Shown in pieces: positions 6,374-64,000 of a DNA stretch of 64,000 nt (position 1 is the first letter of the stretch; each line of letters opens with the position of its first letter). The notes beneath the pieces were generated by a model. That model ran no database searches, had not been told where the DNA came from, and saw nothing but the letters and a program-made list of their open reading frames with translations. The stretch spans positions 199,662 to 263,661 of the forward strand of contig CBDDPW010000007.1 in assembly GCA_965232535.1 (NCBI GenBank), read 5' to 3'. The translations under genes were made by a program, and so were the position numbers. The stretch is from Candidatus Poribacteria bacterium. Its GTDB lineage: Bacteria; Poribacteria; WGA-4E; JAJDTR01.

Positions 6374-6420
6374 TTCTCCTTTAAGAGCGTAGGTTCGTTG
6401 TTTCGCGTATAAGTATACAA

Positions 6421-6593: not shown

Positions 6594-6651
6594 AACACGC
6601 ATGCCTGAAAAAATTTACGGCGAGGTTTGGGATTCAAGTAGAGCGTAAAAT

Positions 6652-8263: not shown

Positions 8264-8349
8264 GATTGGACAATAGAGACGTGCGGTAATTCTGCGTCTC
8301 GAGTGAAAGGAATCAGGAATAACACTGTTTCAACGTTTTTCGCGAATGC

Positions 8350-8913: not shown

Positions 8914-9017
8914 CCAATCTCCATAGTAGCGCGCGTATTAACCTGCTGTATTGGCTTTGCTGATCTCCTGCCCCACAACATCCATCCACTCTCAATCTAA
9001 CACCACTTCTACCCACA

Positions 9018-46574: not shown

Positions 46575-49500
46575 ATGCCACGAAAATTAACGCTTATATT
46601 TTGCACCATCATCGTAGGTACAACCTGCTGTTTTGAGGGTATTTCCCAGCCTTCTCATGATCCGGCGATCCACACATCGCTTCACAAACTAGACACCTTA
46701 TTAAAGCCGCTTGTGATGAGACACGCAGGCTCTATTCAGAAGGGCTATGCCTCCCCGTTGATCCGGTATTCTGAACGGTATGGCACGGATGTAATTAAGG
46801 CGATGCTTTTAATGTCGGACTCGCCGCACACTCTTCGCACTCTCGGCGTAGATTTACAATCGGTTATACGACTGAACTATCATTCGCACGGCTTCTTGGT
46901 CACAGCTGAGCTCCCTGTTAATTTACTTCCAGAAGTCGTGATGATGCGGAATGTAACCTATATTCATGCTGCCCGTCGGGCTCAATTGGCTGCCCCTTCA
47001 CTGGATAGAAGTGCTCTCGCTACCGGTGCAAGTCAGGTGTGGAAAAGTAACCCCACCTATACCGGGAAGGATGTCGTCGTCGGAATAATTGATTCGGGCA
47101 TTGATTGGGCTCACGAAGATTTTAAGAATCCGGACGGAAGTTCGAGAATCCTGTGGATCTGGGATCAGACGCAAACAGCAGCCGGCCAAGTCCCTCAAGA
47201 CTTTGGCTATGGAACAGAATGGACGCAGATGCAAATCAACGAGGGTACTCCAAATCAGAACGATTATGACGGACACGGCACCCATATCGCTTCAATAGCC
47301 GCCGGCAACGGCAGGGGCACGGGCGTGCAACGCTCCGCTCCAAGATTCGTGGGAATGGCACCGGAAGCTGACATAATTGCAGTTAAATCGCACTTGTTCG
47401 AGAATCAGGTGTTGGATGCGGCGCGCTATATCTTTGAAAAAGCGGAATCGCTTGGAAAACCGGCAGTTGTGAACATGAGCTTCGCATACCAAATAGGCCC
47501 GCACGATGGACGAACGCTATTGGAGCAGGGGTTGAACCAACTTGTTGAAGAAACGTCCGGCAGGGCGATTGTCGCGAGCGCGGGGAACAGGGGAGAAAGT
47601 ACAATCCATGCCGGAGCAGTTCTGGTGCCTCCGGAAGGAGAAAACTATCCAAAGCTAATTCCTGTGCCGGATTTCAACGACGCCACTCTCTATACAATCA
47701 TCTGGTATTCATCCAAGGAATCCATCTCTGTGCGGGTGAAAGTGCCCGGGACCAATCCAGGAGAAACCGTTGATTTCGAGTGGGTTCCTCCCGGACAGGT
47801 GGATGATTTCGATATCCCGAAGGGGCCATGGGAAGGTGCGACGTTGATTATCGATTCCCAGCAGCAGCATCCGGTTTATCCGGATCTTGCATCTATCATC
47901 GTTTGGCTGTGGAATGGTGGTGACATAGGTTTGCCACTTGATCGGTACGAGATGACGATTGAACTTGACGGGCCAGGAGTTCCTTTCGATGCCTACTACT
48001 TGTCTAGTGAAATCGACGGCGGGTTCAGAACGGATAGCCCTGATCCATGGCTAATCCCGGGCGATGCCAATAAAACCATCGGCATGCCGTCAACGGCAAG
48101 AGGTGTCATCAGTGTCACCTCCTATGTTACGCGAAACGACTGGGTGGATATGTTTGGCTTTCTGAGAGCCGTTGATGCAACTGTCGGAGAAATCTCTAGC
48201 ATATCTAGTGTAGGACCAAGTCGTGATGAGAAAGAGAAGCCGAATCTCGCCGCTCCGGGAGAGATGATAGTTGCGGCGCTCGCCGGGCGGAGTTGGGGAT
48301 ACCCTCCATTGGTTCTGGAAGACCAAAGCCATATCGCACTCCGGGGATCGAGTGTCGCCGCCGCTCATGTTACAGGTGCGGTGGCACTTTTGCTTCAGCA
48401 GGAACCCGCGAGAACAGTGGTAGATTTGCAGCGCCTCCTGATGGAGCGTGCCGTGGATAGCGGAGATCCGGGCTGGGACAGCTACTGGGGTGCGGGGCAA
48501 CTGAACATTCTAGCATCATTGGACGTTCCTGCAGTCCCACAGGGCTTTACCGCTGTTTCAGAAGACGGGGCGGTGAGTTTAAGCTGGATGGCAAATGTCG
48601 AATCCAACATCGCCGGGTATAGACTCCACATCTCGGACCGGACGTTTGATCTCGGAAATGTCGAGACCCTTAGGTTAACTGACCTCCAGAACGGTGTACC
48701 CATCGTTGTCGCGTTAAGCGCATTCAACACCGCCGGAAATGAGAGTGCCAAGACGAGGCCGTTGATTGTAATCCCAACGGCAAATCCCGGAGGAGAAGAC
48801 ACCACTTCACCGACGCCGCCTACCGGCTTGATTGTGACGCCGGGAGATGGCAGCGTTGGACTGGTCTGGAACCCAAATCCGGAGCCGGACGTTGCAGGTT
48901 ACATAATTCTGTTTGGTGGTGCTCCCGGCGAGTATTTTGCTCACTTTGATGTGCAAAACGAGACCTTTCTGCGAGTAACGGGAGCAGAAAATGATGTGCC
49001 CCTCTTTGTTGTCGTTGTTGCTTTTGATTCGGCAGGAAATGTAAGCGAACTCTCTGAAGAAGTAGAATTCACTCCCACTGCTCAAGAGTCCACATTAGTT
49101 CCCGACCAAGAGGGATGGCCATTTCAGACTGAAAGCGAGGTGTTTTCCTCACCGGTGCTCGTCGACCTTGATGGAGACGGCACGCTCGAGATTATTGTAG
49201 GTTCAAAGGATGGATTGCTCCAAGTTTGGAATCATGACGGATCATCGGTTACCGGTTGGCCACAAGAAACCGACGGCGAGTTGATAGCCACGCCGTCCGT
49301 GGGCGACCTAGACGCAGATGGCAGCCTTGAAATTGTGCTTCCGGTCGAAAGGCGAGTCTACATTTTCCGCCGCGATGGCACACGTTTCAACTCGGAATGG
49401 CCGAAACGCTTCAAGAGCCGCATTATTGCCGCGGCTACCCTCGCCGATCTCGACAAAGATTTTGACAAGGAAATAATTATTGTCACCAAAACAGACGGCG

Positions 49501-51029
49501 TGCATGTACTCCATCATGACGGAGACAATCTTGACGGGTGGCCACAGGAAATAGAGGATTATGGCTTAACCCCGGCGGCAGTTGGTGACCTGAACCGAGA
49601 CGCTTCGCTGGAGCTTGTCGTCACCACGAGTGGAGCCAATGTTTACGCATGGGAATCCGATGGCACCGCATTGGAGGGATGGCCCATTGAACCAAGACCG
49701 GGAACCGGAGCTAACGCGCCGCCGGTATTGGCTGATCTCGACTCCGACGGTACTTTGGAAATTATTTTGATGTTTAGGAACGGAAGCATCTATGTTCTCT
49801 CTCAAAAAGGCGAAGTCCGCGACGGATGGCCCCAGCGAATCGGATATACACCATATGCTGCGCCGGCAGTCGGCGATTTGAACGGAGATGGGGAACTCGA
49901 AATCATCGCTGGCGATTTGGGCACATCAAGCATTGTCGCCTTGAATGAAGATGGCACACTGGCGGCGGGATGGCCAATCTCAATTTTCGGATCAACGGTT
50001 ACATCGATTCCCGTGCTGGGAGACATTAACGGTGACGACGAGGTTGAGGTCGTCGTTGCAACCAACTGGGGAAGTTTCTTTGGGCAATTACACGCCTTTA
50101 GTTCTGACGGTGTTGAGCTTGACGGTTGGCCCCTCATTACCACGGGCAATCTCCAATCTTCACCTGCTATCGGTGACCTTGACAACGACGGGGATGTGGA
50201 AATCTGTATCGGTTCTCTGCGGGCACCTAGTCAGGGTGAGTTTATCCCCGGATCGGTCTATATATGGGATTTGGAAGGCCAATCCACTGATGCGAAAGTT
50301 GAGTGGGGCATGTTTCAGGCAAATCCGGAACATACCGGGGTTTACGTCAACAACCTCCCTCCGTCAAACGTGTTCTCATCGTTCACGGGTGCGCGAGAAT
50401 TCAATCAGATTCGCCTCAACTGGACGACAATGGGAGAGTACGGTAATCTCGGATGGCGAATCTACCGAAACGAGACTCCGGACGGAGAATTTAAGCCCTT
50501 AATCGACGCATTCCGGTCGACAATTGACCGTCCAGTAGAAGTATTGATAAAGGGCAGAGGATACAGTAATTCAGAACGCGATTATGTCTTTTTTGACGAA
50601 GATACCTCTCCTCTCAAGACCTATTCGTACTATCTAGAGAACAGAGGACTCTTGGGCAGAGTCAGCCTTTCGCCAATTATCACAGTCGAGGGCTTGAAGG
50701 CCGTCACCATCGGTGGACTCAAGACAGAACTTTACCAGAGTTTTCCGAATCCCGGCAATCCCGAAACCTGGCTTCCATTCGCACTTGGCGCCACCGCGAA
50801 GGTCTCGGTCGCTATACGCAACACATCCGGCGATTTAGTGAGGGAACTAGACTTGGGAGAAAGACCATCGGGACTGTATTCCACCAGGTCAAACGCGGGA
50901 TATTGGGACGGCCGTAACGAATTGGGTGAACCAGTCGCCAGCGGTATCTATTACTACACATTCACAATTTCCGAACGCGGTGGCTCTCGTGCGCAGGAGA
51001 TGACGCGGCGACTGGTCATCTTGAAATAG
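46575..51029 (+). CDS. secreted multidomain S8 (subtilisin-family) serine peptidase with FN3-like, FG-GAP/VCBS-like repeats and a C-terminal FlgD-Ig/sorting-type domain
   Basis: Catalytic triad contexts are 'GIIDSGIDWAHEDF', 'HGTHIASIAAG' and 'GSSVAAAHVTGAV'. There are about 9 repeats of the 'GDLDGDG.LEI' type. The C-terminal 'LYQSFPNPGNPETWLPF...GIYYYTF' follows the pattern of FlgD-Ig-like or secretion-sorting domains. Signal-peptide-like start MPRKLTLIFCTIIVG at 46575, with GGAGAAAG upstream. Confidence 0.85.
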   Translation: MPRKLTLIFCTIIVGTTCCFEGISQPSHDPAIHTSLHKLDTLLKPLVMRHAGSIQKGYASPLIRYSERYGTDVIKAMLLMSDSPHTLRTLGVDLQSVIRLNYHSHGFLVTAELPVNLLPEVVMMRNVTYIHAARRAQLAAPSLDRSALATGASQVWKSNPTYTGKDVVVGIIDSGIDWAHEDFKNPDGSSRILWIWDQTQTAAGQVPQDFGYGTEWTQMQINEGTPNQNDYDGHGTHIASIAAGNGRGTGVQRSAPRFVGMAPEADIIAVKSHLFENQVLDAARYIFEKAESLGKPAVVNMSFAYQIGPHDGRTLLEQGLNQLVEETSGRAIVASAGNRGESTIHAGAVLVPPEGENYPKLIPVPDFNDATLYTIIWYSSKESISVRVKVPGTNPGETVDFEWVPPGQVDDFDIPKGPWEGATLIIDSQQQHPVYPDLASIIVWLWNGGDIGLPLDRYEMTIELDGPGVPFDAYYLSSEIDGGFRTDSPDPWLIPGDANKTIGMPSTARGVISVTSYVTRNDWVDMFGFLRAVDATVGEISSISSVGPSRDEKEKPNLAAPGEMIVAALAGRSWGYPPLVLEDQSHIALRGSSVAAAHVTGAVALLLQQEPARTVVDLQRLLMERAVDSGDPGWDSYWGAGQLNILASLDVPAVPQGFTAVSEDGAVSLSWMANVESNIAGYRLHISDRTFDLGNVETLRLTDLQNGVPIVVALSAFNTAGNESAKTRPLIVIPTANPGGEDTTSPTPPTGLIVTPGDGSVGLVWNPNPEPDVAGYIILFGGAPGEYFAHFDVQNETFLRVTGAENDVPLFVVVVAFDSAGNVSELSEEVEFTPTAQESTLVPDQEGWPFQTESEVFSSPVLVDLDGDGTLEIIVGSKDGLLQVWNHDGSSVTGWPQETDGELIATPSVGDLDADGSLEIVLPVERRVYIFRRDGTRFNSEWPKRFKSRIIAAATLADLDKDFDKEIIIVTKTDGVHVLHHDGDNLDGWPQEIEDYGLTPAAVGDLNRDASLELVVTTSGANVYAWESDGTALEGWPIEPRPGTGANAPPVLADLDSDGTLEIILMFRNGSIYVLSQKGEVRDGWPQRIGYTPYAAPAVGDLNGDGELEIIAGDLGTSSIVALNEDGTLAAGWPISIFGSTVTSIPVLGDINGDDEVEVVVATNWGSFFGQLHAFSSDGVELDGWPLITTGNLQSSPAIGDLDNDGDVEICIGSLRAPSQGEFIPGSVYIWDLEGQSTDAKVEWGMFQANPEHTGVYVNNLPPSNVFSSFTGAREFNQIRLNWTTMGEYGNLGWRIYRNETPDGEFKPLIDAFRSTIDRPVEVLIKGRGYSNSERDYVFFDEDTSPLKTYSYYLENRGLLGRVSLSPIITVEGLKAVTIGGLKTELYQSFPNPGNPETWLPFALGATAKVSVAIRNTSGDLVRELDLGERPSGLYSTRSNAGYWDGRNELGEPVASGIYYYTFTISERGGSRAQEMTRRLVILK

Positions 51030-51133
51030 CCGAGCCGCTTTTTAGGTGAATCTCGGGGCACGTTAACAGGATATCCTTCAAGAAATGGCGAGCGTTAGCA
51101 CAATAGCTGGACAGGGTTAATGAAGGGAAAGGC

Positions 51134-52159
51134 ATGTCTAACAATTCTGCCGTGACGGTTTACCGGATCGGCATCGTGGGAACAGGCGGAATCGCAAAGG
51201 CGCACGGCAGGGCGTGTAAAGAACTTGAATGCGCCGAACTCTCCGCCATCTGTGACATTTCCGAAGAGGCTTTACATCGTTACGCCGAAGCATTTGGAGT
51301 GAAGCGTCTCTACGGTACTCTCGATCAGATGTTGGCTAGCGAAGAACTCGATATCGCCATTGTCGCCAACTGGGGGGCGTTTCATGCAGAAACAGGCATT
51401 CAAATTGCCAAGTCACGCCGCGTTAAAGCCATTATATGTGAAAAGCCGTTTACATCGAATGCGGCGGAGGCAGAACAACTCGTAAATGCCGCGAATGCAA
51501 ACGGTATACTTGTTACGGAAGCCTTCAAGTTCCGACATCATCCAATGCATCTAAAGGCGAAGGAACTCATTGACGCTGGAGAAATTGGAGAGGTAAAAAC
51601 AGTGCGCAGCACCTTCTGCACCGGGGGCAGGGGCGGAGGACCTGAATCTCGCCCACCGGAAAGGAACTGGCGTTTCAACAAGGCAAAGGGCGGCGGAAGC
51701 ATCTATGACCTAGGGTGCTACTGTATTCATCATGCGCGGTTTGTCTTTGATGCGGAGCCTGTTACGGCATTTGCGATTCAGCAGTGGGGAATCGAAGTTG
51801 ATGATGCAATGTATATCCTTCTTACCTTCCCGGGCGCGCGAACCGCGCAGATTTCCGTCGGCTTCAATTCGTCAAACGCACAATACGCTGAAATCTGCGG
51901 TACAGAGGGGATGTTGCGCTTGGACAGAATCTGGAACAATGAAGACCGCGCCGTGTCAATCGAAAAACACACGGTTGATGGATTGGAATCCATCGAATTT
52001 GATCCGGTGTTTCAGTTCACGAACCAACTCAGGCACCTCTGCGATTGTTTGACAACGGGACAACCGCACCGTATTTCACCCGAGAACTGCGTCCGCCAAA
52101 TGAAAGTGATAGATGCCGTTCGTGAATCGGTAGAAACCGGGAACGTCGTGGCGATTTAA
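51134..52159 (+). CDS. Gfo/Idh/MocA family oxidoreductase
   Basis: 341 aa with Rossmann 'IGIVGTGGIAKAH' and 'EKP' motif 'IICEKPF'. Confidence 0.85.
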   Translation: MSNNSAVTVYRIGIVGTGGIAKAHGRACKELECAELSAICDISEEALHRYAEAFGVKRLYGTLDQMLASEELDIAIVANWGAFHAETGIQIAKSRRVKAIICEKPFTSNAAEAEQLVNAANANGILVTEAFKFRHHPMHLKAKELIDAGEIGEVKTVRSTFCTGGRGGGPESRPPERNWRFNKAKGGGSIYDLGCYCIHHARFVFDAEPVTAFAIQQWGIEVDDAMYILLTFPGARTAQISVGFNSSNAQYAEICGTEGMLRLDRIWNNEDRAVSIEKHTVDGLESIEFDPVFQFTNQLRHLCDCLTTGQPHRISPENCVRQMKVIDAVRESVETGNVVAI

Positions 52160-52220
52160 AAAATAAAACGAACCTTGGAAATTTATACCATCGCCGACAG
52201 TTGCATGGATGCGATTGGTT

Positions 52221-54083
52221 CTATCTAGTAGCATGTTCCATGATCTCGGTCATTCGTGCGACAAAATCGGTCGGAGAATCCATATTACCTTCAATCAGAA
52301 GCGCCCCTCCAAAAACCTGCAACACACAACTCTTGAGAAGCGACTCATCACCTTTTTTCTCGTGAATATGAGCAAGGTTCTTTATTAACGGGTGAGAGGG
52401 ATTGATCTCAAGAATCTTCTTTGAGTCAGGAATGTCTTGGTTCATCATCTTCATCATTCGTTCCATCTGCCGATCTATTCCGCTGGCTCCGACGACGAGG
52501 GTTGCCGCAGAATCGACAAGCCTTTTGGATTCGACCACATCCTCTACCTTGTCACCAAGCGTTTCTTTGAACAGCGAAATTAGCGACTTGGACTCATCCT
52601 CGGTTAAGCTATCACCCTCGCTCTCGTCATCCGACTTAAGGTCGAGGCCTGCGGTTTCAATTCCTTTTATCGGTTTTTCGTCGTATTCATGCAACTGTGG
52701 AATATTGAAGATATCCGCCGGATCAATGAAAAACAGGACTTCGATTCCCCTTTTCCTGAAATACTCCAGATTAGGATTCAGTTCTACCGCCGCTCTGTTC
52801 TCCCCAGTCAGATAGTAAATCTCTTTTTGATCCTCCGGCATACCAACCGCGTAGTCCTTCAGTGACGTGAACTTTCCTTTTTCGGTTTTTGTGGATTCGA
52901 ACCGCAAGAGATCGATCAACCGATCACGGTTTCCAAAGTCTGTGCTGAGTCCGGTTTTGAACAACAGCCCAAAGTTCGTGAAAAATGTGTCGTACTTTTC
53001 TTGGTCATTCTTTGCCCAATCCTCAAGAAGCGACAAAATTCTTCCCGTAAGCACATTTTTGATCTTTCCCATGACCGGGCTTGATTGCGTTACTTCACGA
53101 GATACGTTTAACGGCAAATCTTCCGTATCCACGACCCCCGCGACGAAACGTAGATACTCTGGAAGTAGCTCCTTGCAGTCGTCCTGGATAAAGATCCTGT
53201 TCGCGTAGAGTTGCAACGACTTCAGGTCATCTCCCCTCAGAAAATTGAAGGGAGCGGTTTCGGGCACAAAAACCATCGCCTTGAAATTTACCTGCCCCTC
53301 AATAGCCAAATGCAGATGACCAAGTGTCGAGTTGAAGTCGTTGGATATGAACTTATAAAATTCCTCTAGCTCTTCATCTGTCACTTCATTTTTGTTTTTC
53401 TGCCACAGCGCGCTTATGGTGTTGACCTGTTCGCCGTTGACATGAATCGGGAAATCGGCGAAGTTGGAGTATTTTTTGATTATCTCGTTTACTCGGTGTT
53501 CCTCACTGAACTCCTTCGCATCGTCCTTAAGTTTGAACGAGATTGTCGTTCCTCGCTCCTCACGTGGAAATTCTTCAACGGTAAATTGGCTCTCGCCGGT
53601 CGATTCCCACCGATACCCCTTTGACCCCGAATCTGCGTGACGGGTTTCGATGACCACCTGATCGGTTACCATAAAAACGGAATAGAAACCGATGCCGAAT
53701 TGACCGATCAGATTCGCGTCGAAGGGTTTGCCCTCCTCTTTCAATCGCTCCAAAAATGCCACGGTGCCGGAACTTGCAATGGTGCCGATTCTGGATACGA
53801 GATCTTCCTTCGTCATGCCGATGCCGGTGTCGGCAATCGAGAAGGTTTGTCCTTTCGAGTCAACACTGATGTTGATTCGCAAAGGCGCGTCGGGACTTAC
53901 AATATCCTTGTCCGTTAACTGTCTGAAACGCACTTGATTTAGAGCATCGGAAGCATTGGAAATCACTTCGCGGAGAAAAACTTCGCGATGGCTGTAGAGA
54001 GAATGAACGATAAGATGAAGAAGCTGCTTCATCTCCGCTTGGTATTCAAATTCCTCCAATGCTTCAGGTTTATCGTTGGACAT
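52221..54083 (-). CDS. htpG: molecular chaperone HtpG (Hsp90)
   Basis: 620 aa with 'FLREVISNASDALNQ', 'DTGIGMTKEDL' and 'GQFGIGFYSVFMV'. Confidence 0.95.
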   Translation of the reverse strand: MSNDKPEALEEFEYQAEMKQLLHLIVHSLYSHREVFLREVISNASDALNQVRFRQLTDKDIVSPDAPLRINISVDSKGQTFSIADTGIGMTKEDLVSRIGTIASSGTVAFLERLKEEGKPFDANLIGQFGIGFYSVFMVTDQVVIETRHADSGSKGYRWESTGESQFTVEEFPREERGTTISFKLKDDAKEFSEEHRVNEIIKKYSNFADFPIHVNGEQVNTISALWQKNKNEVTDEELEEFYKFISNDFNSTLGHLHLAIEGQVNFKAMVFVPETAPFNFLRGDDLKSLQLYANRIFIQDDCKELLPEYLRFVAGVVDTEDLPLNVSREVTQSSPVMGKIKNVLTGRILSLLEDWAKNDQEKYDTFFTNFGLLFKTGLSTDFGNRDRLIDLLRFESTKTEKGKFTSLKDYAVGMPEDQKEIYYLTGENRAAVELNPNLEYFRKRGIEVLFFIDPADIFNIPQLHEYDEKPIKGIETAGLDLKSDDESEGDSLTEDESKSLISLFKETLGDKVEDVVESKRLVDSAATLVVGASGIDRQMERMMKMMNQDIPDSKKILEINPSHPLIKNLAHIHEKKGDESLLKSCVLQVFGGALLIEGNMDSPTDFVARMTEIMEHATR

Positions 54084-54276
54084 AGTCGAAAAATCCTCCT
54101 ATTGTTTGTTGATGAAGTAACAGTTTACTCATGATTGTTGATTTTGAACGCATACAATATACTGCTTTGGAAGCAGAATCCGCAATCAAATTGTCCCCAT
54201 CGGAACGTAGTCTGAATGAATTGACATCTACCCTCACGGCAACTGCAGAACATAAATTCTCGTAGAGGGTTTACCG

Positions 54277-54597
54277 CTACTCGATACTCACGGTCAGCGC
54301 GGAAAACCGTATCGTGATTGACCGTTCACCTTCCGTCGCCTCTATGCGAATAGGACTTCCGTAGGGAACACCATCTGTTCTATCGCCTTCCGTCGGTGAA
54401 GACAAAAGATTGGCTGCAGGTCGAATGCCTCCTGTCACACTAGACATGACTGGCGCATCAGGCGTCGTCAACTCAATTTCATATACCTCGGACAAATTAT
54501 CCCAGTCACAGTCCAAGCAGAATAGCTTGTCCTCGTCTATAGATTTGATCGAATCATGTTTACAATTCGGACATAGCATTTTTTGCCTCCCGCCCAA
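54277..54597 (-). CDS. hypothetical Zn-ribbon protein
   Basis: 106 aa with 'CPNCKH...CLDCDW' (two CxxC pairs). Confidence 0.35.
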   Translation of the reverse strand: MGGRQKMLCPNCKHDSIKSIDEDKLFCLDCDWDNLSEVYEIELTTPDAPVMSSVTGGIRPAANLLSSPTEGDRTDGVPYGSPIRIEATEGERSITIRFSALTVSIE

Positions 54598-54711
54598 GAA
54601 ACGATGCGAATCTTGTCAGGGTTGCAAGAGTTAAGCTTGCAGCGTCAGCGGGACATTGAATCTGCGCCGGCACAAATTAAAAATCATCTGTAATGAAACG
54701 CCGCCGATGAT

Positions 54712-56232
54712 TCATAGCCTATCGAGCTCCTTCACGGCTTGGATGCCGCTATCCAATGCTTCAAATAGCAGCGGCAACCGGCTATTGTCTACTCCGGCAT
54801 AGACAAGATTGGGTTCGGACCGATGCAGATTCTTATCGCTGAACAGGTAATGAGGTTTGGGAACCGGCATCGCGTGTCCAAGCACCTTGAAAAAAACCTT
54901 CTCCACGAGAGGACCGACATCTTGATCGAAGAACTGGTTAATCGTCTTTACCGTCTCTCGGGTAATCTCCTGGGCGTTGCGCTGAATGTTGGCTAGATAA
55001 GGTCTCTGGTCAGGAGGGAAGCAGTAGTATGCCGTAAACACTCGAGCGTCACTCGCGCGAAATTGAGAGGCGCTATCCACGAATCCCATGTAGGTCGAAT
55101 CCTCGCCCAAGAGTTCGTTTTGCCAAAACGCTTCCGATTGAAGATCGTCTTTAAGGACGATGTTTAGTACCAGCCACGGTGCATATGTGTTGTCTTGAAA
55201 AAGATGGGCGTCGGATGGAAATACGTATTTCAGCGCGTGTTTACCGCCTGCATAGATGACATTCTTTGCAAGGTAGCGGTCAATCCGAGAGTTCTCAATA
55301 TTTACTACTAGCACTTCAAAACCGGTTTCGCCCTTCTGTACACTCTTCACCAAGTGACTTGTCTTAATCCTGTCGCCGGGGAGGGTCGCCGCCATTTTGT
55401 CCACAAAATATGCGTTTCCCTCCGGCGGCGAAAACAGTTCCACGGATTGGGTGTAGTAAGGTCTACAGGTGTAGTAGTGGATTCCGGCGAGCGCAGAGAC
55501 CGTTGCCGCGTCGGCACCGTAGTCATCCCTCATCTGGTAATCCACTCCTTGCTTAAAGGACGAGTTTAATCTCAAGGCACGCTTAAGAAAGTCAAGAAAA
55601 CTTATCTCGTCAAGCGTCCATAGCTCCTCCCTAATAATCCGCGTCGGCTGCCTCATTTCCCCCAAATAGGGAAGTAAAAGTTCCAAGAATTCGGTTCTGA
55701 GTTGGCTCGGTTCGAGAATATCCTCTCGCATTCCTTCCGAAGTGAGGGTTTGACCTTCCCGCCGAACATCAATCAGATACTGACGGTCGACAAAATTCCA
55801 TGAATCAACTAGATTATCGTAACGAATAACCCCCAGTTCTTCAAGGAAGTTTAAGGTCTCGCCCCCATAATAGTTTGGGTAAGCCAAATCGTAATGCGCG
55901 CCTTGAGAAAAGACTTCGCCGGCGTGAGATTCGCTCGCTGACGTGCCGCCGAGTCGCGCCGACAGTTCGCACAAGACGAAATCCCTGTCCCGCAGTTGGC
56001 ATGCCGCCGATAACCCGGAGATGCCGCCGCCCACGATAAGATATTCGGTAGAGAACGTGTTCCCTGCCGGCATAGCGGCGCTATTCAAAAGCAGATGTCC
56101 CGCCCCCATGTCAGAATTGATTGATATGTCATATAACTGCGAGTTGGGCTTCTCGGATGTTGAGTCGCATGATTGAGTGAGGATTCCGGCGAGGGCGAGG
56201 GAGGAAAGTTTAATGAAGGTTCGGCGGTTCAT
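54712..56232 (-). CDS. FAD-dependent oxidoreductase with Tat-type signal peptide
   Basis: 506 aa. Twin-arginine leader 'MNRRTFIKLSSLALAG' and dinucleotide fold 'YLIVGGGISGLSAA'. Confidence 0.7.
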   Translation of the reverse strand: MNRRTFIKLSSLALAGILTQSCDSTSEKPNSQLYDISINSDMGAGHLLLNSAAMPAGNTFSTEYLIVGGGISGLSAACQLRDRDFVLCELSARLGGTSASESHAGEVFSQGAHYDLAYPNYYGGETLNFLEELGVIRYDNLVDSWNFVDRQYLIDVRREGQTLTSEGMREDILEPSQLRTEFLELLLPYLGEMRQPTRIIREELWTLDEISFLDFLKRALRLNSSFKQGVDYQMRDDYGADAATVSALAGIHYYTCRPYYTQSVELFSPPEGNAYFVDKMAATLPGDRIKTSHLVKSVQKGETGFEVLVVNIENSRIDRYLAKNVIYAGGKHALKYVFPSDAHLFQDNTYAPWLVLNIVLKDDLQSEAFWQNELLGEDSTYMGFVDSASQFRASDARVFTAYYCFPPDQRPYLANIQRNAQEITRETVKTINQFFDQDVGPLVEKVFFKVLGHAMPVPKPHYLFSDKNLHRSEPNLVYAGVDNSRLPLLFEALDSGIQAVKELDRL

Positions 56233-56284
56233 GGTAGGAGTGATTGGACTGTAGGGATTGATAATGTAGGACTAAATTAACACG

Positions 56285-59200
56285 TTACGCTGCCCAACGC
56301 TCGGACAAAACTTCGGCTTGCTCTATGACAGTTTCGGCGGCTCTATCCTGCTTGTCAGGCGGGTAGCCGTATCTTCGCAGAATTCGCTTCACCAGTCGAC
56401 GCAGGTTGGCGCGGACACTCTCCTTCATCGTCCAGTCAATGGTGACGTTATTGCGGACAGTTGTCACAAGTTCGGTCGCAATCGTGCACAAGGTCTCATC
56501 TCCCAACACTTGTACGGCGCTATCGTTGGTTTCAAGCGCGTCGTAGAACGCCAATTCATCGCTCGAAAGCCCCAACTCTTCGCCGCGCTCAGCCGCTTCG
56601 CGCAACTCTTTTGCCGTTTGGATAAGTTCCTCGATTACCTGCGCGGCTTCTATCGTCCGGTTTTGATAGGCGCGAATGGATTGTTCCAACATCTCTGCAA
56701 ATGAACGCGCTCTGACGACGTTCTTACGTGATTGTGTTTTAATTTCATCGTTGAGCAGCTTGTCCAAGAGTTCAACCGCCAAGTTTCTTTGCGGTAGATT
56801 GCGCACTTCCGCGAGGAATTCGTCGGAAAGAATTGAAATATCGGGCTTCTCCAATCCCGCGGCGGCAAAGATATCAACCACGCCCTCGGGAACAACAGCC
56901 CTAGATACCAACTGCTGGATTGCGAGCTCTGCCGCCTCGGACTGTGTTTCCTCCCTAGCCGTCAGTTTTGCCAAAACACCTCGCACCGTTTGAAAAAAGG
57001 CGACATCGTCGCGGATTTCAATCGCTCTTTCGTGAGGCACGACCAGAGAGAAGGCCTTGGAGAGCGCGGCGACCTCATTCAGCAGGCGGGCTTTGCCATC
57101 CTCCAAGCCCAAGACATGATCTTGAGCGGCGGGCAGTAGTCTGAGACGTTCCTCGGCGTTTCCACTAGCCCAAGACGACCAATCGAAACCGTGGAACAGC
57201 CCGCAACAGATTTCGTGCTTTTCCATCATCAAGGCAATGGCTTCGGCTTTATCAATAGAGGGTTCCCCTTTTCCGCCGCTTTCCGTGTAGTCGGTTAAAG
57301 CTTGTTTTAGATGGTAGCCGATCCCGATGTAGTCCACAATCAGACCGCCGGGTTTTTCGCCGAAGACGCGATTGACGCGCGCGATGGCTTGCATCAGGGT
57401 GTGACCTCGCATCGGCTTGTCGACATACATCGTGTGAAGGCTTGGCGCGTCGAATCCGGTCAGCCACATGTCGCGGACAATCACAAATTTTAACGGATCA
57501 TCGGGATTCTTGAATCGAACTGCCAACGCTTCGCGCCGCGCTTTGTTGCGAATATGAGGCTGCCACGATTCATCTTCCGATGCTTCGCCCGTCATCACCA
57601 CCTTAATAATCCCCTGCACGTCATCCTCGTCATGCCATTCCGGACGCCTTTCCACAATGGCGTTGTAGAGATCGACGCAGATACGGCGGCTCATGCAGAC
57701 CACCATCGCCTTGCCGTCCATCGCATCCAATCGTTCTTCGAAATGCGTGATGATGTCATCGGCAACCAGAGCCAAGCGTTTCTCCGTTCCGACCAGCGCC
57801 TCAAGCCTAGCCCATTTCGATCTGAGTCGTTCTCTATGCCGTTCCTCCTCTCCTTCAGTCACCTCCTCGAACTCCGGATCAACATTGGGCTTTTCGTTCT
57901 CGTCCAGTTCAATTTTGGCAAGCCGGCTCTCGTAGTAGATGGGCACAGTGGCGCCGTCATCGACGGCTTGTTGGATATCGTAGATGCTGATGTAGTCTCC
58001 GAATACGTTTCGGGTGTTGCGGTCTGTTCCCTCAATCGGGGTGCCGGTGAAACCGATAAACGATGCGTTCGGGAGCGCGTCGCGCATGTGGCGCGCGAAA
58101 CCGTCAATAAAGTCGTACTGGCTACGGTGGGCTTCGTCCGCAATGGCAACGATATTTCGTCGATCGGATAGTTCCGGGAATTGGAGTTCTTCACCCTCCG
58201 GAAAGAATTTTTGCACCGTGGTAAAAACCACACCGCCCGAAGCAACTCTCAAGAGTTCGCGCAGGTGCTCCCTGTCTCGGGCTTGTTCCGGTCTTTGCCG
58301 CAACAGTTGGTTGCAGCGAGCGAACGTGCCGAACAGTTGGTCGTCCAAGTCGTTGCGATCGGTGATGATGACCAGTGTCGGGTTTCGCATTTCCGGGCGC
58401 CGGATGATGCCTCCGGCGTAGAATGCCATTGTCAGGCTTTTGCCCGAGCCTTGCGTGTGCCAGATGACGCCGCAGCGTTTGTCTCCGCCCGGGTGCGACG
58501 CCATCACGGTAGCATCGACAGCGGCTCTCACGGCGTGGAATTGGTGATAACCGGCGATCTTCTTGGCAATCGTATCGCCGCCCATTTCCTCAAAGACAAT
58601 GAAGTGACTTAGATAGTTCAGAAAGCGTTCCTTGTCAAAGAGTCCCTTAATTGTCACCTCAAGTTCCAGATCGGTTGATGCGGCTTCGGTTTCTCCCTCG
58701 ATGGTCCGCCACGGCATGAACCGTTCCCGATCAGCCGTCAAAGAACCAACGCGAGCTTCCACCCCGTCAGAGATGACAAGCGCCGCGTTATACGTGAAAA
58801 GGCGCGGAATTTCCCGCTTGTAGGTCTGAAGTTGGCGAAATGCCGACCACACGGTGGCGTTCTCGTCGGTCGGGTCTTTGAGTTCAATTACGCCTAACGG
58901 GAGTCCATTTACAAACAGCACGATATCCGGTCGGCGTGGGCTTTCACCCTTCACCGCAAATTGATTAACCGCCAACCAGTCGTTGTTTTCGGGGTTCTCA
59001 AAATCCACCAATTGCACACGCCCACCGCGCATTGCACCATCGGCGTCCCGATATTCAACTTCGACGCCATCAACCAGCATGAGGTGACACATCCTATTGT
59101 TTTGGACCAATGAAGCGGAGATTGGAGAGAGTACCTTTTGAACGGCTTCCTTTTGAGATTCGGCGGGGATGCTCGGATTCAGTCGGGCAACCGCACCACG

Positions 59201-59392
59201 CACACGCTGCTCTAGGACAACGTCTTCGTATCTTGAGCGCTCGGCACCAGGAGCGTCCGGGGAGATGTCGGAACCATGCAAGACGGAATACCCCATACCC
59301 GCGATCCAATTCAAGGCGGCTTGTTCAATGTCAGATTCGGTGATGCTATTCATCATAGGCTCTACTGTGTTTCGCCTTGAGGTGCGGTCCAT
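56285..59392 (-). CDS. hsdR: Type I restriction enzyme R subunit (HsdR), full length
   Basis: 1,035 aa. N-terminal '[16 protein letters not shown]' and PD-(D/E)xK '[20 protein letters not shown]'. SF2 motor motifs '[11 protein letters not shown]', '[10 protein letters not shown]', 'GFTGTP' and 'QAIARVNR'. C-terminal helical domain '[12 protein letters not shown]'. An alternative start at 59356 (MMNSITESD) is possible. Confidence 0.9.
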
Positions 59393-60450
59393 TGATTTAC
59401 AAAATCGGCGCTGTCAATATCAGGTTGTCCTTGGCGTGCATAGAAGGAAGAAAAACGTGCGACGATATCCTTTACAAAGGAAGATGAAATCTGAATTTCA
59501 GGGAGTTCAAAGCTGTCGTCGAATTCGTCTTTGGTCAACGCGTTCACTTTTCTGAAGTTTAGAAATCCACCGTCAAAAAAATCTGTTTTCGGTAGCCAGT
59601 GATAGTAAATCTCGCGATTGTTATTGGCAACTGCAACGAGTTCCTTGTTTATTCTGTCTCGTTTCCTAAACCCATCCAGCGCGTTCTCAACAATATCACA
59701 TTCCTCCTCTATTTCGGCAATAAGGATTCGGTCTGTTTTGGATACGTCGTCATTTCTGATAACGAGGTCACAGGCTGGGCTCAGAACTATAAATGGCGAA
59801 TTGGTTGTTTTTTCTCTTACGATACTGCCGGTGGTTATTTTGTTCGACAAATGGGGATATATGTACACCTCTTCGGGATAGCGCGGTTTGTTATCTTCCC
59901 CAAGAAGCTGAAGTAGATGATCCAACGTATAGCGCAGGAGTGCATTCTCAGTTCGTTCCAAATCTGCTTTGCCATAGGAAACCCATCTTTCCCTTTGTAG
60001 CAGAAGATTTTCGAGAAAAACCTTACCGAGCAACTCCTCAATTCTCCCTGCTCCACCCATCATCCGAGTAAGTCCTGTCTCATAAGTATCCCATAGTTGG
60101 TCTATAAGATTGTAATATCGAGTTTCTCCCTTCAGGAACACCTCAATTCCTTTAATGCTTTCATTCCGAATGTCGGGGTTCCCCGTAAAAATGAAGATTG
60201 GGATTCGGAAAAATAACTTTCTGATTTCTTTTATAACCTCAATTCCTTCAACGCCTTGGGACGTTAGTTTCAAATCAATAATCGCACCATCATAGGAGTT
60301 GTCCAACTTTTCTAACGCTTCGTCAAAAGTTTTACATTCAACTATTTCGATGTTCCGTCGCGTGTCGTCCCTATAGTTTTCAACATCCACCCTGCAGCGC
60401 TCAAGATCCTGCTCGTCGTCTTCCACTATGAGTAGCTGTAATGTGCTCAT
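59362..60450 (-). CDS. receiver (REC) domain protein with an unassigned ~240-aa C-terminal domain
   Basis: 362 aa. All canonical receiver residues are present: D11/D12 ('IVEDDE'), D59 ('AIIDLKL'), T89 ('IFTGNPD') and K107 ('VFLKGE'). The C-terminal region has no motif I can name. The start overlaps the kinase stop in ATGA (60447-60450). Confidence 0.75.
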
Positions 60451-62657
60451 TCATTACTCCCAATTTTAGGCTGAAGTCTGAAATAAGCGCCCTTTTCAAA
60501 CTCAAAGGCTTTCAACTCAAGGCCGTTTCGTTCTGCGGCTTCAGAGGCTATAGCCAACCCAATCCCTGTCCCGTTTGGTTTGGTAGAAAATTGTGGGTCA
60601 AAGATAATCTCGTTTTCTATGAGGCTCGGTTCAATGCCCGGGCCCGTGTCCCGATAGTCGATATGGATTAGGGAGTTACCGTCAGTCAGGAGTTCGATAG
60701 AGATATGCCGTATGGCGCCCTTTTTCTGGCTCATCCAGTAAAGACTGTTGTCGATAAGATTTGTGAAGATTGCGTACATGTCTTGAGGCCACACCGAGAA
60801 TTTGAAGTTGTCGAGCCCTATAACTTCCGCGGTTACACTGTGAGATTTCATTTCGTTTTCAAAGACAGATAGCGTGCTCTGAATCGCTTTCTTTAGCTCC
60901 AGTGGCTTTCTTACGCCACGCCTTTCTACTACCAGCGGGTCCAGTTTGCCGAAGAGTTTCACAAGGAACTCCATATTTTCTTCAATCCCATCGGCAATCG
61001 ACAGCAACTTTTCAAGTTTTTCCGGATCTTTGTTCTTCCGAAAAGATTCGTGCCAGCGTCTAAGATGAGGTATGCTGTGTCGGAAGTAGCTGAGCGGCTG
61101 TCTGCCTTCATGGACTATAACATTGAGGATTTTCCCCAAGGTCGCCTGCACCTGAGAAACCCCGACAGCTTGGCGGATTTCATCGGCGAGTTTGTTTTTG
61201 GATTTTTCCTCCCGGCTGATGAGTCCAATGATTTGATTGGCGGTTGCTTCTTCGATTTCGGTTCTTTTGAGTTGTTTCCGTATATTCTCTTTCAGTTCAT
61301 CAAATGAAAAAAGGCGTGTCAGTTCTCGTTCCACCTTGACAGCAGGCCGACTCAACCCCGCCTTCCTTCTGTATTCGAAACGCCTTCTTTCCAGTTGCCT
61401 GATGACCGCCAGCGTGACTTCCTTCAGCCGATTAAACGCCGCATTTTCTTTAAGCCCGTCCCGAGCGCTTTTTTCCTCCAAGCCGGACCAATAATCCGAT
61501 TCAATGTGCACATATCCAATCACCTGGTTGTTTCCAAGATGAAGTGACGAGTTCCGTATTCGCCGCGCGTTCAGTTTGAGCCAGTCAAAGTCGGCATCCC
61601 CCAATGGTCTGATACGGAAGCCGTTTCGATAAACACCGATTCCATTGTAAGCGTTGAGAAGCTGTCTCGCCTGATTTTTCCCGACATAGTTGCCCGATTC
61701 CTCTTTTAAGCCTCGTCCAATGAGAGATTCAATGGCGTCATTATCGCGGTCGAACGCTCGGACATCAATCTCGAAATTCCCATAGCGTACAGACTTTTCG
61801 AAATCGAACGGGACCTCCTCATTAATATCAAAGTCTAAGTGTTCGTCGGCGATGTTACGGGCTTTCTGCGATGAATAGGTTATTTTACCTTTGCCATCGG
61901 CGCCGATTTTACCTGCAATTCTGTAGTCGTAGAGATCGAACAGTAGATAGGGTTCAATGACTTCGTCAGTGTTTTCCACTCCGGGAAAACCGGTAACCTT
62001 CAAGTTTATGTGGAATTCATCATTTCCGAAGACTGTGCTAACGGGCGATTTCAACTTCTTAAGTTCAAATTGGAGTTTCTCAAATCCTTTCTTGCCCCAT
62101 TCGGCAAGGAATTCATCATCTCCGTTGATGGTCAGCCTTGTTCCCGGTGGCTCAGAAACCTCTGCTGTTTCAACCCGTACCGGTACATCATCCAGATACT
62201 CGGCGGATTCAAAATCTTTCCACACAAAGTGCGCCGTAGTTTTTTCGCCTGTGATGCTGACAGTTTCGAGAAGCAAATCTGTACCGAGAATGGACGCCGC
62301 GTAACGTCCTACCCCTTTGCTTCCCTGCATCGTCCTACCGGAAAGACTTTTCCGCCTGTCAAATTTATCTTGAGTTGATGGCACCATCCACTTGTTGACC
62401 ACATCTTCCCTTGACATGCCGTGACCGTGATCGGCGATGACGATGGTATATCCGCTGTGAAGGGGAGACATCATGAACTCGATCTCTACATCGGGAGAAT
62501 CGGCGTCATAAGCGTTCTTGACTAATTCAACAACTGCCGCATTACTGTCCTGAATCAAATCGCGGCCAATCGTCAGAATGTGTCGACCGGCGGGCTTTAT
62601 TTTATAGGTTGTGTCAGTGCTCAGATCCAATTTACTCTCCACTTCTCCGCGGCGCAA
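60447..62657 (-). CDS. histidine kinase with an additional N-terminal MORC/Hsp90-like GHKL ATPase module
   Basis: 736 aa with no TM segment. The N-terminal Bergerat fold has 'VVELVKNAYDADS', 'IADHGHGMS' and 'GSKGVGRYA'. A central coiled region follows. The H-box is 'IVHEGRQPLSYF'. The C-terminal kinase ATPase has 'NLIDNSLYWM', 'DTGPGIEPS' and 'GTGIGLAIASE'. The start codon is uncertain: the track uses the TTG at 62657, and GTG/TTG alternatives lie 15-27 nt downstream. Confidence 0.75.
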   Translation of the reverse strand: MRRGEVESKLDLSTDTTYKIKPAGRHILTIGRDLIQDSNAAVVELVKNAYDADSPDVEIEFMMSPLHSGYTIVIADHGHGMSREDVVNKWMVPSTQDKFDRRKSLSGRTMQGSKGVGRYAASILGTDLLLETVSITGEKTTAHFVWKDFESAEYLDDVPVRVETAEVSEPPGTRLTINGDDEFLAEWGKKGFEKLQFELKKLKSPVSTVFGNDEFHINLKVTGFPGVENTDEVIEPYLLFDLYDYRIAGKIGADGKGKITYSSQKARNIADEHLDFDINEEVPFDFEKSVRYGNFEIDVRAFDRDNDAIESLIGRGLKEESGNYVGKNQARQLLNAYNGIGVYRNGFRIRPLGDADFDWLKLNARRIRNSSLHLGNNQVIGYVHIESDYWSGLEEKSARDGLKENAAFNRLKEVTLAVIRQLERRRFEYRRKAGLSRPAVKVERELTRLFSFDELKENIRKQLKRTEIEEATANQIIGLISREEKSKNKLADEIRQAVGVSQVQATLGKILNVIVHEGRQPLSYFRHSIPHLRRWHESFRKNKDPEKLEKLLSIADGIEENMEFLVKLFGKLDPLVVERRGVRKPLELKKAIQSTLSVFENEMKSHSVTAEVIGLDNFKFSVWPQDMYAIFTNLIDNSLYWMSQKKGAIRHISIELLTDGNSLIHIDYRDTGPGIEPSLIENEIIFDPQFSTKPNGTGIGLAIASEAAERNGLELKAFEFEKGAYFRLQPKIGSNE

Positions 62658-62705
62658 ATCTCATGAGATTAATCCCAATATAGCAGAACTGATTCAAGAG
62701 TGCAA
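62657..62705 (-). promoter_or_regulatory. sigma-70-like promoter plus 14-bp perfect palindrome upstream of the kinase gene
   Basis: On the minus strand: TTGCAC (62705-62700), 17-nt spacer, TATATT (62682-62677). The perfect palindrome 'aatctcatgagatt' (62670-62657) then sits at the predicted transcription start. Confidence 0.4.
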
Positions 62706-62919
62706 TTCGTTGTCACTGTGGTGGAATCCTGTCGCTAGGTTTTTAGTTGGTTTTGTTTGGCGCCCCTAGACAACAACCTCGGCGTGAGCGTAAAGTGGGA
62801 TGCAAAAACCTGGGTTGAATTTTCCCGGGCTGGGACCAATACAGTTACCCCCAATGTTTAGACAGCTATGAACGAAGATTAAGGTGTAAAGGCTATCCAA
62901 TCCGGCTACGTTTCAACGC

Positions 62920-63770
62920 CTAATGTTGTTGGAAATACACCTCGTGAGGCGTCCTTTTATTGAGCGACCCATGAAGCCGCTCCTCATTATAAAACTTGAA
63001 ATAGTTGTTCAAGCCACACCAAGCCGTGTGAACAGAGTCATAAGAATGAAAATACACATGTTCATATTTCACTGTCCACCAGAGACGTTCAATGAAAATG
63101 TTGTCAAACACTCTGCCTGCTCCAGCCCAACTGATGCGAATGTTCGCCGATTCAAGCCGAGTGGTAAAGGCATCAGACGTGAATTGGGCACCCTGATCGC
63201 TGTTGAAAATCAAGGGCGTAGAACAACTCAACGCTCGTTCCAGAGCCGATAGACAAAAGAAAACATCGAGTGAATTTGACAGTTCCCATGATAACACATA
63301 TCGAGAGTACCAATCCATAATAGCCACTAGATAAACAAAGCCGGTGTCCAAGCCGATATAGGTGATATCAGTTGCCCACACCTGGTCCGGTCTAGTGATA
63401 CGTGAATCCTTCAGTAAATAAGGATACTTTTTCGATGGTTTACCGTTCTTAGAGGTTTTCGGCTTGGGATAGATGGCAACTAAGTTCATCTGTCGCATCA
63501 ACCTGGCAATCCGTTTCCGATTGACGACGTAGCCTTTGGAACAAAGCCAGTCCGTCATTCGAGGTACACCGTAGAACGGGGTCTTCATGTACTGTTCATC
63601 AATCAGACGCATATAAAGCAGGTTTTCCGGCGACTCTACTGCCGGTTGATAGTAATACGAAGCGCGTGGCAACTCTAACAGTTCGCATTGCCTCAAAACC
63701 GAGGGGGAACCGTTCTCTTGGTTGATAAGCCGCCGCTTCTGTTCAACCGAGCCGTTGAGTTTTTTTTTGA
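62920..63770 (-). CDS. IS3-family transposase orfB (DDE integrase-like domain)
   Basis: 'LRQCELLELPRASYYYQP', 'WATDITYI', 'FNSDQGAQFTS' and 'ERLWWTVKYE' give a DD(35)E context. The frame is open upstream to the A9 run (plus-strand T9 at 63760-63768). Confidence 0.85.
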
Positions 63771-64000
63771 AGCCAGTCTAGTTCTACCTTCAATTGACCG
63801 ATTTGCCGGTAGAGCTCGGCTATGAGTCGGTCGTTGTCAGAAGTCGCTTGAGTGCGTCCGTTTGCAAACAGTTGAGGTGATTCCTCCAGAATCTGTCTTT
63901 TCCACTGGCTGACCTGATTCGGGTGGACTTCGTAGTCACTGGCAATCTGAGCCATGGTGCGCTGGTTCTTTATCGCCTCAATCGCCACTTGTGCTTTGAA
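63743..64000 (-). CDS. IS3-family transposase orfA (HTH + leucine zipper), N-terminus off window
   Basis: 'FKAQVAIEAIKNQRTMAQIASDYEVHPNQVSQWKRQILE' and the heptad 'LIAELYRQIGQLKVELDWLQKK'. The frame is still open at position 64000. Confidence 0.85.
   Translation of the reverse strand, partial: FKAQVAIEAIKNQRTMAQIASDYEVHPNQVSQWKRQILEESPQLFANGRTQATSDNDRLIAELYRQIGQLKVELDWLQKKTQRLG

Follow-up and report, generated by a model that had tools for sequence, protein, structure and literature searches.

The DNA analysed here, referred to as the window, is a stretch of 64,000 nucleotides from a Candidatus Poribacteria bacterium (GenBank assembly GCA_965232535.1, contig CBDDPW010000007.1, positions 199,662 to 263,661 of the forward strand). 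Towards its end lie three genes on the minus strand that encode a histidine kinase with two GHKL ATPase domains, a receiver-domain protein here called REC-X, and HsdR of a type I restriction-modification (R-M) system. The kinase and REC-X probably constitute a mobile defence pair that is nested in an ordinary type I operon, with HsdR as a separate function.

In its maximal form the kinase open reading frame has 736 amino acids and runs from a TTG at 62657 (60447-62657). REC-X has 362 amino acids (59362-60450) and HsdR 1035 (56285-59392). These three are the only open reading frames in 56285-62657, with an amine oxidase gene carrying a Tat signal as downstream neighbour and an IS3-family element (rve and HTH_21 domains) as upstream neighbour. 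Read directly, the kinase and REC-X genes overlap in ATGA at 60447-60450, the REC-X stop codon TAG occupies 59362-59364, and the ATG candidates for hsdR are at 59392 and at 59356/59353. The REC-X stop and the hsdR start overlap by 31 nucleotides both in the window and in the related locus L007. The initial annotation of the window, made from its sequence, had described the same junctions and flanks, which stand, and had placed the three genes behind one promoter-like site, which does not: sigma-70-like matches number 7 against 6.6 expected by chance and none lies 5' of the kinase. A terminator scan gave nothing above chance. The true start of the kinase is probably TTG 62630, which is preceded by a Shine-Dalgarno-like motif (GGAGAG) and gives about 727 amino acids. 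The first start, TTG 62657, is probably not real, as the kinase homologues are 9-13 residues shorter.

The kinase is a predicted soluble protein in which a paraMORC-type ATPase (GHKL plus transducer) is fused to the core of a histidine kinase, consisting of a dimerisation and histidine phosphotransfer (DHp) domain and a catalytic and ATP-binding (CA) domain. The Bergerat-fold ATPase domain HATPase_c_3 covers amino acids 38-152 (62202-62546; Pfam, 66.9 bits) and the catalytic ATP-binding domain HATPase_c covers amino acids 626-731 (60465-60782; 65.1 bits). A profile search of PDB matched the N-terminus to GHKL domains of Hsp90/MORC type (HtpG, MORC3) and amino acids 463-716 to the DHp and CA domains of FixL, ZraS and HK853. 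Homologues are 714-739 amino acids long and cover 98% of the query. In an alignment of 70 sequences the N-terminal ATPase site (E44/N48/D51, D76/G78/G80, G112/K114/G115/G117), the H-box residues H516-E517 and the C-terminal N, G1 and G2 boxes (N633/N637, D670/G672/G674, G696/G698/G700) are all invariant. The predicted phospho-accepting residue is His516 (codon 61110-61112), located by the alignment and the DHp helix match in an H-box reading H-E-G-R. Weak matches to the restriction-enzyme models BbrUII/HgiDII and PADLOC REase_II concern the kinase N-terminus only, and neither PADLOC nor NCBIfam names a system for the kinase or REC-X.

REC-X, which has 1234 homologues and is conserved over its full length, begins with a receiver domain (amino acids 1 to about 120; 60091-60450), continues with a helical hairpin (about 136-184) and ends with a domain of MazF/PemK fold (about 200-345; 59416-59853). 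The Pfam family Response_reg scores 25.6 bits, under its cutoff of 30.2. A domain scan of the three proteins, as proposed in the initial annotation, thus returned a full domain set for HsdR and both ATPase domains of the kinase and stayed below cutoff for the receiver. The receiver fold was confirmed with Foldseek, which matched RcsB, CpxR, Spo0F and other receivers. D11 and D59 are invariant, and T89 and K107 are invariant in an alignment of 35 sequences and near-invariant in one of 75. Because the catalytic residues of both kinase and receiver are invariant (T89 and K107 near-invariant at the widest sampling), phosphotransfer between them is plausible, as the initial annotation had judged from the H-box and these four receiver residues, and so is a working cytoplasmic phosphorelay tied to restriction or defence.

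The C-terminal part of REC-X was difficult to place with the full-length model from AlphaFold2 (AF2), which was mediocre (predicted local distance difference test, pLDDT, 70) and for which Foldseek found receivers alone. Amino acids 121-362 were modelled separately with AF2, using an alignment of 87 sequences that spans both subfamilies. This model has a pLDDT of 88.9 and a predicted template modelling (TM) score of 0.79, and displays a long helical hairpin, after which come a β-barrel and a C-terminal helix. In the Foldseek search of PDB the top 50 matches are MazF/Kid-type endoribonuclease toxins or the ToxN-like CptN, with E-values from 4e-4 to 4e-3 and TM-scores on the target of 0.63-0.73 for MazF-type structures and 0.48 for CptN. 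In BFVD, an independent viral library, PemK/MazF toxins rank first. The shared fold of REC-X with the MazF/PemK/Kid and ToxN/CptN toxins is the β-barrel with the C-terminal helix. MazF/PemK/Kid toxins are paired with an antitoxin, whereas the REC-X domain is fused to a receiver, contains an additional helical insertion of 35 residues and has no significant sequence similarity to them.

Residues that are invariant across both subfamilies of REC-X are P225, C227, P287, F299, F325, R339-Q340-G341 and P343, with D228 and K327-D328 near-invariant. H284 and R300 are invariant inside the close family. A reading of the C-terminus as a PD-(D/E)xK nuclease, based on D228...E246xE248, was dropped after the fold result. 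The toxin-fold domain, found in 514 representative clusters, nearly always occupies one position in proteins of 350-390 amino acids and has essentially no occurrence in other architectures. It is a putative dedicated output of the REC-X receiver rather than a promiscuous module. Its modelled fold suggests a toxin triggered by phosphorylation, not control of HsdR, and the assignment of a MazF-fold effector appears to be new.

Receiver homologues were searched in species-representative genomes, which returned 80 loci. They are distributed over Poribacteria, Latescibacterota, Chloroflexota, Desulfobacterota, Chlorobi, Bacteroidota and Spirochaetes, and occur also in Gammaproteobacteria (Yersinia, Rodentibacter) and in one archaeon of the Methanoperedenaceae (a metagenome-assembled genome, MAG). 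When the Yersinia locus was compared at the DNA level with E. coli genomes, there was no match. In about 84 of 86 loci the kinase lies immediately 5' of REC-X, and the gap between them has a median of -4 nucleotides; the two are an obligate pair. Neighbouring open reading frames were clustered and annotated with Pfam, and neighbours were counted over 74 evaluable loci for the C5 DNA methyltransferase and 81 for hsdR. The C5 methyltransferase (PF00145) is directly upstream in 55 of the 74 loci, overlapping the kinase start by 1-13 nucleotides, and is found anywhere in the neighbourhood in 61. Vsr (PF03852) is directly downstream of REC-X in 33 loci. Compared with this, the conserved linkage to hsdR, which the initial annotation had put forward as a check, did not appear: hsdR of the type in the window is found within 10 kb of the pair in 10 of 81 loci.

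The usual cassette is thus C5 DNA methyltransferase, kinase, REC-X and Vsr, in that order, and it is horizontally mobile. A hypervariable specificity segment in the kinase or in the C5 methyltransferase was considered and rejected, as both are evenly conserved, which fits a single orthologous four-gene cassette that has spread horizontally. Distant subfamilies of about 27% identity, on a Hymenobacter plasmid and on Campylobacter plasmids, retain the C5 methyltransferase, the kinase and REC-X. On the Hymenobacter plasmid (NZ_CP043645.1, 5996-12493) a second GHKL-based, R-M-like set with DUF3883, an ATP-binding protein, a Z1 domain, PD-(D/E)XK and AIPR directly follows Vsr, C5 methyltransferase, kinase and REC-X, so that two systems of paraMORC type adjoin. 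The distant version is carried by 41 Campylobacter plasmids, for example pCA639-1 of Campylobacter armoricus (4810-9260). The Campylobacter pair has a convergent C5 methyltransferase and is found on conjugative MOBP/MPF_T plasmids of about 50 kb in C. jejuni and C. coli, which makes this version a tractable and clinically relevant place for tests.

HsdR of the window had been described as intact, and this is borne out. Its Pfam domains are complete (HSDR_N, SWI2_SNF2, T1R_D3-like and T1RH-like_C), it matches PADLOC REase_I over its full length with 1144 bits and NCBIfam TIGR00348 with 633 bits, and its ratio of nonsynonymous to synonymous substitutions (dN/dS) is 0.08-0.10. A tblastn search of the window with HsdM, HsdS, C5 methyltransferase, Vsr, Mod and Res found an unrelated type IIG enzyme alone. 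A weak HsdM-like match at 29781-30518 was rejected as the partner hsdM since it is part of this single-chain enzyme.

The closest relatives of the window are the loci L090 (REC-X 88% identical), L091, L007 and L008. They are colinear with 49404-62731 of the window and have the amine oxidase, HtpG and GFO_IDH genes in common, and their hsdR orthologues are 86-92% identical and lie in operons that include hsdM and hsdS. The order in these operons is hsdM, a Schlafen/AlbA_2 gene, hsdS, a TIR gene, in some cases an open reading frame of 334 amino acids, kinase, REC-X, in some cases an AAA_21 ATPase, and hsdR. Two further loci, L051 and L075, have the same operon. In all six colinear relatives hsdS and hsdM are situated 2-6 kb upstream of the kinase. 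Among the ten loci with hsdR, the operon also contains hsdM and hsdS in eight, all six syntenic relatives among them, and in the remaining two (L015 and L019) the contig ends at hsdR. The presence of both genes in the operon of the relatives means that HsdR probably has its normal recruiting complex.

Colinearity between the window and its relatives ends at about 62731, some 75 bp 5' of the kinase open reading frame, and the IS3 element begins there. Of the conserved intergenic region 5' of the kinase, 62658-62731 is still present in the window, as seen in blastn comparison with L091 and L007 and in a DNA alignment. The element (62920-63988, minus strand; Pfam rve, HTH_21 and rve_3) comprises orfB at 62920-63696 and orfA at 63743-63988, which runs off the window end. 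The window thus ends, at 64000, inside an element that occupies the place of the relatives' TIR gene, hsdS and hsdM. Because the relatives carry both hsdS and hsdM, and because IS3 and the window edge coincide with the break in synteny, the two genes are expected just outside the window and the "stand-alone" HsdR would be an edge artefact. The statement that no methyltransferase or specificity gene accompanies hsdR holds inside the window; as a description of a stand-alone HsdR it probably fails, since relatives carry hsdM and hsdS upstream.

The segment between hsdS and hsdR appears to be a place where genes are exchanged. The whole cassette of methyltransferase, kinase and REC-X, with or without Vsr, is found there in L026, L043 and L069, and the TIR gene, the 334-amino-acid open reading frame and the AAA_21 gene are present or absent even among close relatives, which together suggests a cargo slot for defence genes. 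Type I operons with nested accessory defence genes are known, such as EcoprrI with prrC between hsdS and hsdR. The six syntenic relatives have the same order of hsdM, hsdS, cargo and hsdR, with cargo that varies among close relatives. The cargo of EcoprrI is an anticodon nuclease, whereas here it is a phosphorelay pair. Judged from gene order, the state in one Poribacteria lineage is a pair without its own methyltransferase between hsdS and hsdR, beside TIR, Schlafen/AlbA_2 and AAA_21 cargo.

The other cargo genes deserve description. A TIR/SEFIR protein of about 500 amino acids is encoded directly upstream of the kinase (L007 6091-7626; L090 4944-6443; L091 6069-7586). It is present in all methyltransferase-less relatives nested in type I operons, in the position where canonical loci carry the C5 methyltransferase, and might there have taken over as partner of the pair. 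An AAA_21/AAA_15 ATPase of 412 amino acids, similar to OLD/AbiEii, is encoded between REC-X and hsdR in L090 (11190-12428), L091 (11127-12365), L008 and L075 (neighbour cluster c35) and is absent from the window, L007 and L051. The gene between hsdM and hsdS in the relatives encodes Schlafen/AlbA_2 together with HATPase_c_4. In L091 (979-2589 and 12416-15482) hsdM is split in two open reading frames and hsdR in three, with kinase and REC-X intact; this is either decay of the type I system around a functional pair or frameshifts in a long-read assembly.

A C5 methyltransferase is lacking in 13 loci, 10 of them from Poribacteria, and the window is of the same type. Copies of this kind are almost confined to Poribacteria, a derived state. 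Comparison with five relatives gave dN/dS values of 0.13-0.17 (kinase) and 0.16-0.22 (REC-X), and these low ratios show that methyltransferase-less copies are under purifying selection and not decaying. Many Poribacteria loci have type III-like genes on the same strand 24-240 bp after REC-X, namely mod (N6_N4_Mtase, about 540 amino acids) and res (ResIII, about 860 amino acids); loci adjoining type III genes include L010, L011, L016, L025, L059, L066, L071, L078 and L085. This five-gene arrangement is recurrent in Poribacteria and is not reported for other phyla. In L075 (10001-11089) the expected frame of REC-X is interrupted by two stops, and the kinase and hsdR are intact.

The initial annotation knew of no named system with this gene set. 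The type of pair and its R-M context had, though, already been published from in silico work by Bellieny-Rabelo, Pretorius and Moleleki in 2021 (PMC8011034), with the same architecture and context. That study, which is comparative genomics alone, described a kinase-like protein with HATPase_c_3, HEF_HK and HATPase_c and a receiver-like protein with Response_reg_2, linked in 91.6% over 644 regions. A C5 methyltransferase was present upstream and Vsr immediately downstream, R-M domains of types I and II, HSDR and ResIII among them, were enriched nearby, and the authors related the kinase to paraMORCs and speculated on signalling that controls R-M systems. The window pair shares with theirs the soluble kinase layout, the H-box (reading H-E-G in the window family) and the adjoining divergent receiver of about 360 amino acids without another annotated domain, and the taxa overlap with those of the present family (Yersinia, Geobacter, Chlorobi, Hymenobacter). 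The context of C5 methyltransferase and Vsr is found in the present family as a whole and not in the window copy, which is nested in a type I operon instead. The receiver's C-terminal domain was left without assignment in that study.

The Pfam models for these families, PF19191 (HEF_HK) and PF19192 (Response_reg_2), gave no match at E <= 10 in the window or Yersinia pair, the sensitivity of the models being unchecked against a known member. None was found at E <= 0.01 in 75 REC-X proteins or in the Hymenobacter, Campylobacter and Enterobacter pairs, nor in the precomputed Pfam annotation of 341 homologues. The window pair either belongs to a sister family of those published in 2021 or falls outside their narrow Pfam models. 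Earlier, Iyer et al. (2008) had reported R-M operons in which paraMORC GHKL ATPases occur together with C5 methylases, Vsr and SF2 helicases, and had connected paraMORC4 with TIR domains; kinase fusions and receivers are unmentioned.

A relative whose role in defence has been shown by experiment is Ambrosia (bioRxiv 10.1101/2025.09.30.679545), which consists of the XRE regulator AbrR, the N6 methyltransferase AbrA, the kinase AbrB, the receiver AbrC and the HNH nuclease AbrD. All five genes are needed for phage defence, the receiver mutant D60A and the kinase mutants are inactive, infection induces expression, and for AbrC a domain of winged helix-turn-helix (wHTH) type is reported. AbrB has the dual-GHKL layout in common with the window kinase, to which it is homologous (BLASTP E = 5e-26, 28% identity, kinase amino acids 24-404 against the 399 amino acids available for AbrB), and the phospho-accepting D60 of AbrC is at the position equivalent to D59 of REC-X. 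As in the present family, a DNA methyltransferase and a partner of nuclease type accompany the kinase and receiver. The methyltransferase of Ambrosia is, however, of N6 and not C5 type, and its HNH nuclease is a separate protein. AbrC, with 209 amino acids, aligns to the receiver part of REC-X alone (hhalign E = 1e-3, probability 19%), and its tail is helical with the claimed wHTH, without a MazF-fold domain, unlike REC-X. No counterparts of AbrR, AbrA and AbrD (XRE, N6 methyltransferase, HNH) were found among the open reading frames and Pfam matches of 56285-62657. The general idea of a defence phosphorelay in the initial annotation is nevertheless supported by the linked pair, the R-M contexts and the homology to the Ambrosia kinase, in whose system D60A abolishes defence.

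The pair also resembles Detocs in outline, as both have a histidine kinase that signals to a receiver fused to a toxic effector in what would be an anti-phage response. Detocs (kinase DtcA, buffer receiver DtcB and receiver-PNP effector DtcC) differs in that its kinase is of another family without the paraMORC GHKL module, its effector is a nucleosidase in place of the MazF-fold domain, and it has no methyltransferase or Vsr. No PADLOC model for Detocs matches the three proteins of the window, and there is no second receiver gene or PNP domain among them.

MutL, topoisomerases and MORCs work on DNA by means of an ATP-driven clamp that dimerises, and the GHKL and transducer half of the kinase is of this kind. 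MazF toxins act as dimers. For the kinase/REC-X pair as an independent defence unit, a sequence of events may be proposed. The ATP-driven GHKL clamp of the kinase would sense a DNA-associated or infection cue, upon which the kinase would autophosphorylate at His516 and pass the phosphate to Asp59 of REC-X. Dimerisation of the receiver on phosphorylation could then assemble, release or unmask the MazF-fold domain, and the active toxin-fold domain would damage RNA or another essential target and so stop the infected cell from growing. Within the canonical cassette, self DNA would be marked by the methyltransferase, and Vsr would repair the resulting T:G mismatches and so limit mutagenesis. HsdR would act with HsdM and HsdS, independently of the pair.

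Several observations weigh against parts of this interpretation. The toxin assignment is drawn from the fold, and RNase activity must be considered unproven because the C-terminal 240 residues have no Pfam match, including PemK_toxin, at E <= 10, because hhalign of REC-X against E. coli MazF gives a probability of 0.3%, and because the MazF catalytic residues are not conserved, R29 and T52 falling on non-conserved positions. The same low-probability hhalign alignment does place the matching β2-β3 segment together, FIVLSP in REC-X and AVVLSP in MazF. The PDB profile search with REC-X matched receivers alone and found no solved relative of the C-terminal part. The MazF-type fold also includes the gyrase poison CcdB. 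Ambrosia is reported to act via induced transcription and not via a toxin (bioRxiv 10.1101/2025.09.30.679545). The hsdM and hsdS genes of the window's own genome were not seen, their expectation being drawn from relatives. That the pair persists in 13 loci without a C5 methyltransferase is awkward for a logic of cleaving or killing unless DNA is methylated. Finally, an ATP-dependent R-M system (type I hsdR or type III mod-res on the same strand) lies directly downstream, within the next one or two genes, in 8 of 13 methyltransferase-less loci compared with 12 of 61 methyltransferase-bearing loci (Fisher p = 0.004), an enrichment that could mean functional coupling rather than co-location.

Such coupling, in which the methyltransferase-less pair would have come to function together with the type I or III R-M system around it, is unlikely in our judgement, yet it has a real chance of being correct. 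R-M methylation could serve as the self mark, or the pair could be a guard, similar to PrrC, that fires the toxin when restriction encounters unmodified DNA, is overwhelmed or is blocked by an anti-restriction protein of a phage. Apart from the enrichment, it is favoured by the 31-nucleotide overlap with hsdR, by the purifying selection on the methyltransferase-less copies and by Ambrosia, where the homologous kinase partners an N6 and not a C5 methyltransferase. On the other hand, the enrichment is confounded by phylogeny with nearly all of these loci from one phylum and counts as weak evidence; close relatives differ in the genes found between hsdS and hsdR, as for a cargo slot; L009, L027 and L045 carry the pair without an adjoining R-M system; and the pair of L091 is intact while its hsdM and hsdR are fragmented. 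A more particular form, which we hold to be improbable, is that the Poribacteria pair has swapped the C5 methyltransferase for the surrounding R-M system (of type I in the window and of type III in sister loci) and provides the toxin as a second line if restriction fails. The paraMORC clamp would then read the outcome of restriction, that is unmodified DNA or a stalled or inhibited HsdR or Res, and kill or arrest the cell. If true, a two-component relay would be genuinely coupled in function to a translocating restriction enzyme, an idea near to that of the initial annotation except that methylation is retained.

A transcriptional role, where the phosphorylated receiver turns on neighbouring R-M genes during infection, has some precedent in the infection-induced Ambrosia genes with the wHTH reported for AbrC, and in the speculation of the 2021 authors (PMC8011034) on signalling that controls R-M. 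This is quite improbable for REC-X, in which neither Pfam nor the model displays a helix-turn-helix, the C-terminal 160 residues are a MazF-like barrel, AbrC aligns to the receiver part alone, and the invariant polar residues C227, D228, K327, D328, R339 and Q340 look catalytic rather than DNA-reading. The initial annotation had proposed instead that the kinase/receiver pair takes the place of methylation and, after an infection cue, licenses an HsdR that stands alone. The tight packing of the three genes and the visible flanks without an M or S gene made this attractive, but it is now very doubtful: the pair lies near hsdR in just the 10 of 81 loci, its canonical partner is a methyltransferase so that the cassette is built around methylation rather than replacing it, and hsdM and hsdS, present in all syntenic relatives and in 8 of the 10 hsdR operons, are missing where IS3 and the window edge coincide. 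REC-X moreover has its own effector-like domain of MazF/PemK fold, so HsdR is not needed as an output. Hardly credible at all is the view that the pair of the window is in decay, left orphaned when the methyltransferase was lost and separated from its promoter by IS3. The window has no C5 methyltransferase or Vsr, IS3 lies about 75 bp 5' of the maximal kinase open reading frame, and REC-X of L075 has internal stops, but both open reading frames of the window are intact with every family-invariant residue present, dN/dS against the five relatives is 0.13-0.22, and about 75-105 bp of the conserved upstream region is retained.

Elsewhere in the window, at 27930-31721 on the minus strand, is the type IIG or type ISP-like single-chain enzyme of 1263 amino acids with HSDR_N_2, N6_Mtase/Eco57I and Methylase_S domains. 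It is a second, independent restriction system and is flanked by open reading frames of 218 and 296 amino acids without Pfam match.

Gating of HsdR without methylation would have added a new class to the known forms of restriction control, and the evidence speaks against its presence here. The locus also gives reason for caution, since apparently orphan restriction subunits located by IS elements at the edge of a window or contig need to be checked against syntenic relatives. The methyltransferase-less copies nested in type I operons or beside type III genes raise the question of which cue the paraMORC-kinase responds to. The pair itself is very widespread, with more than 1,200 receiver homologues, which come from numerous bacterial phyla, from one archaeal MAG and from 41 conjugative plasmids of Campylobacter. 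For this family the fold of REC-X offers a concrete effector hypothesis: the output of the phosphorelay is probably a toxin triggered by phosphorylation, and not transcription or the licensing of HsdR.

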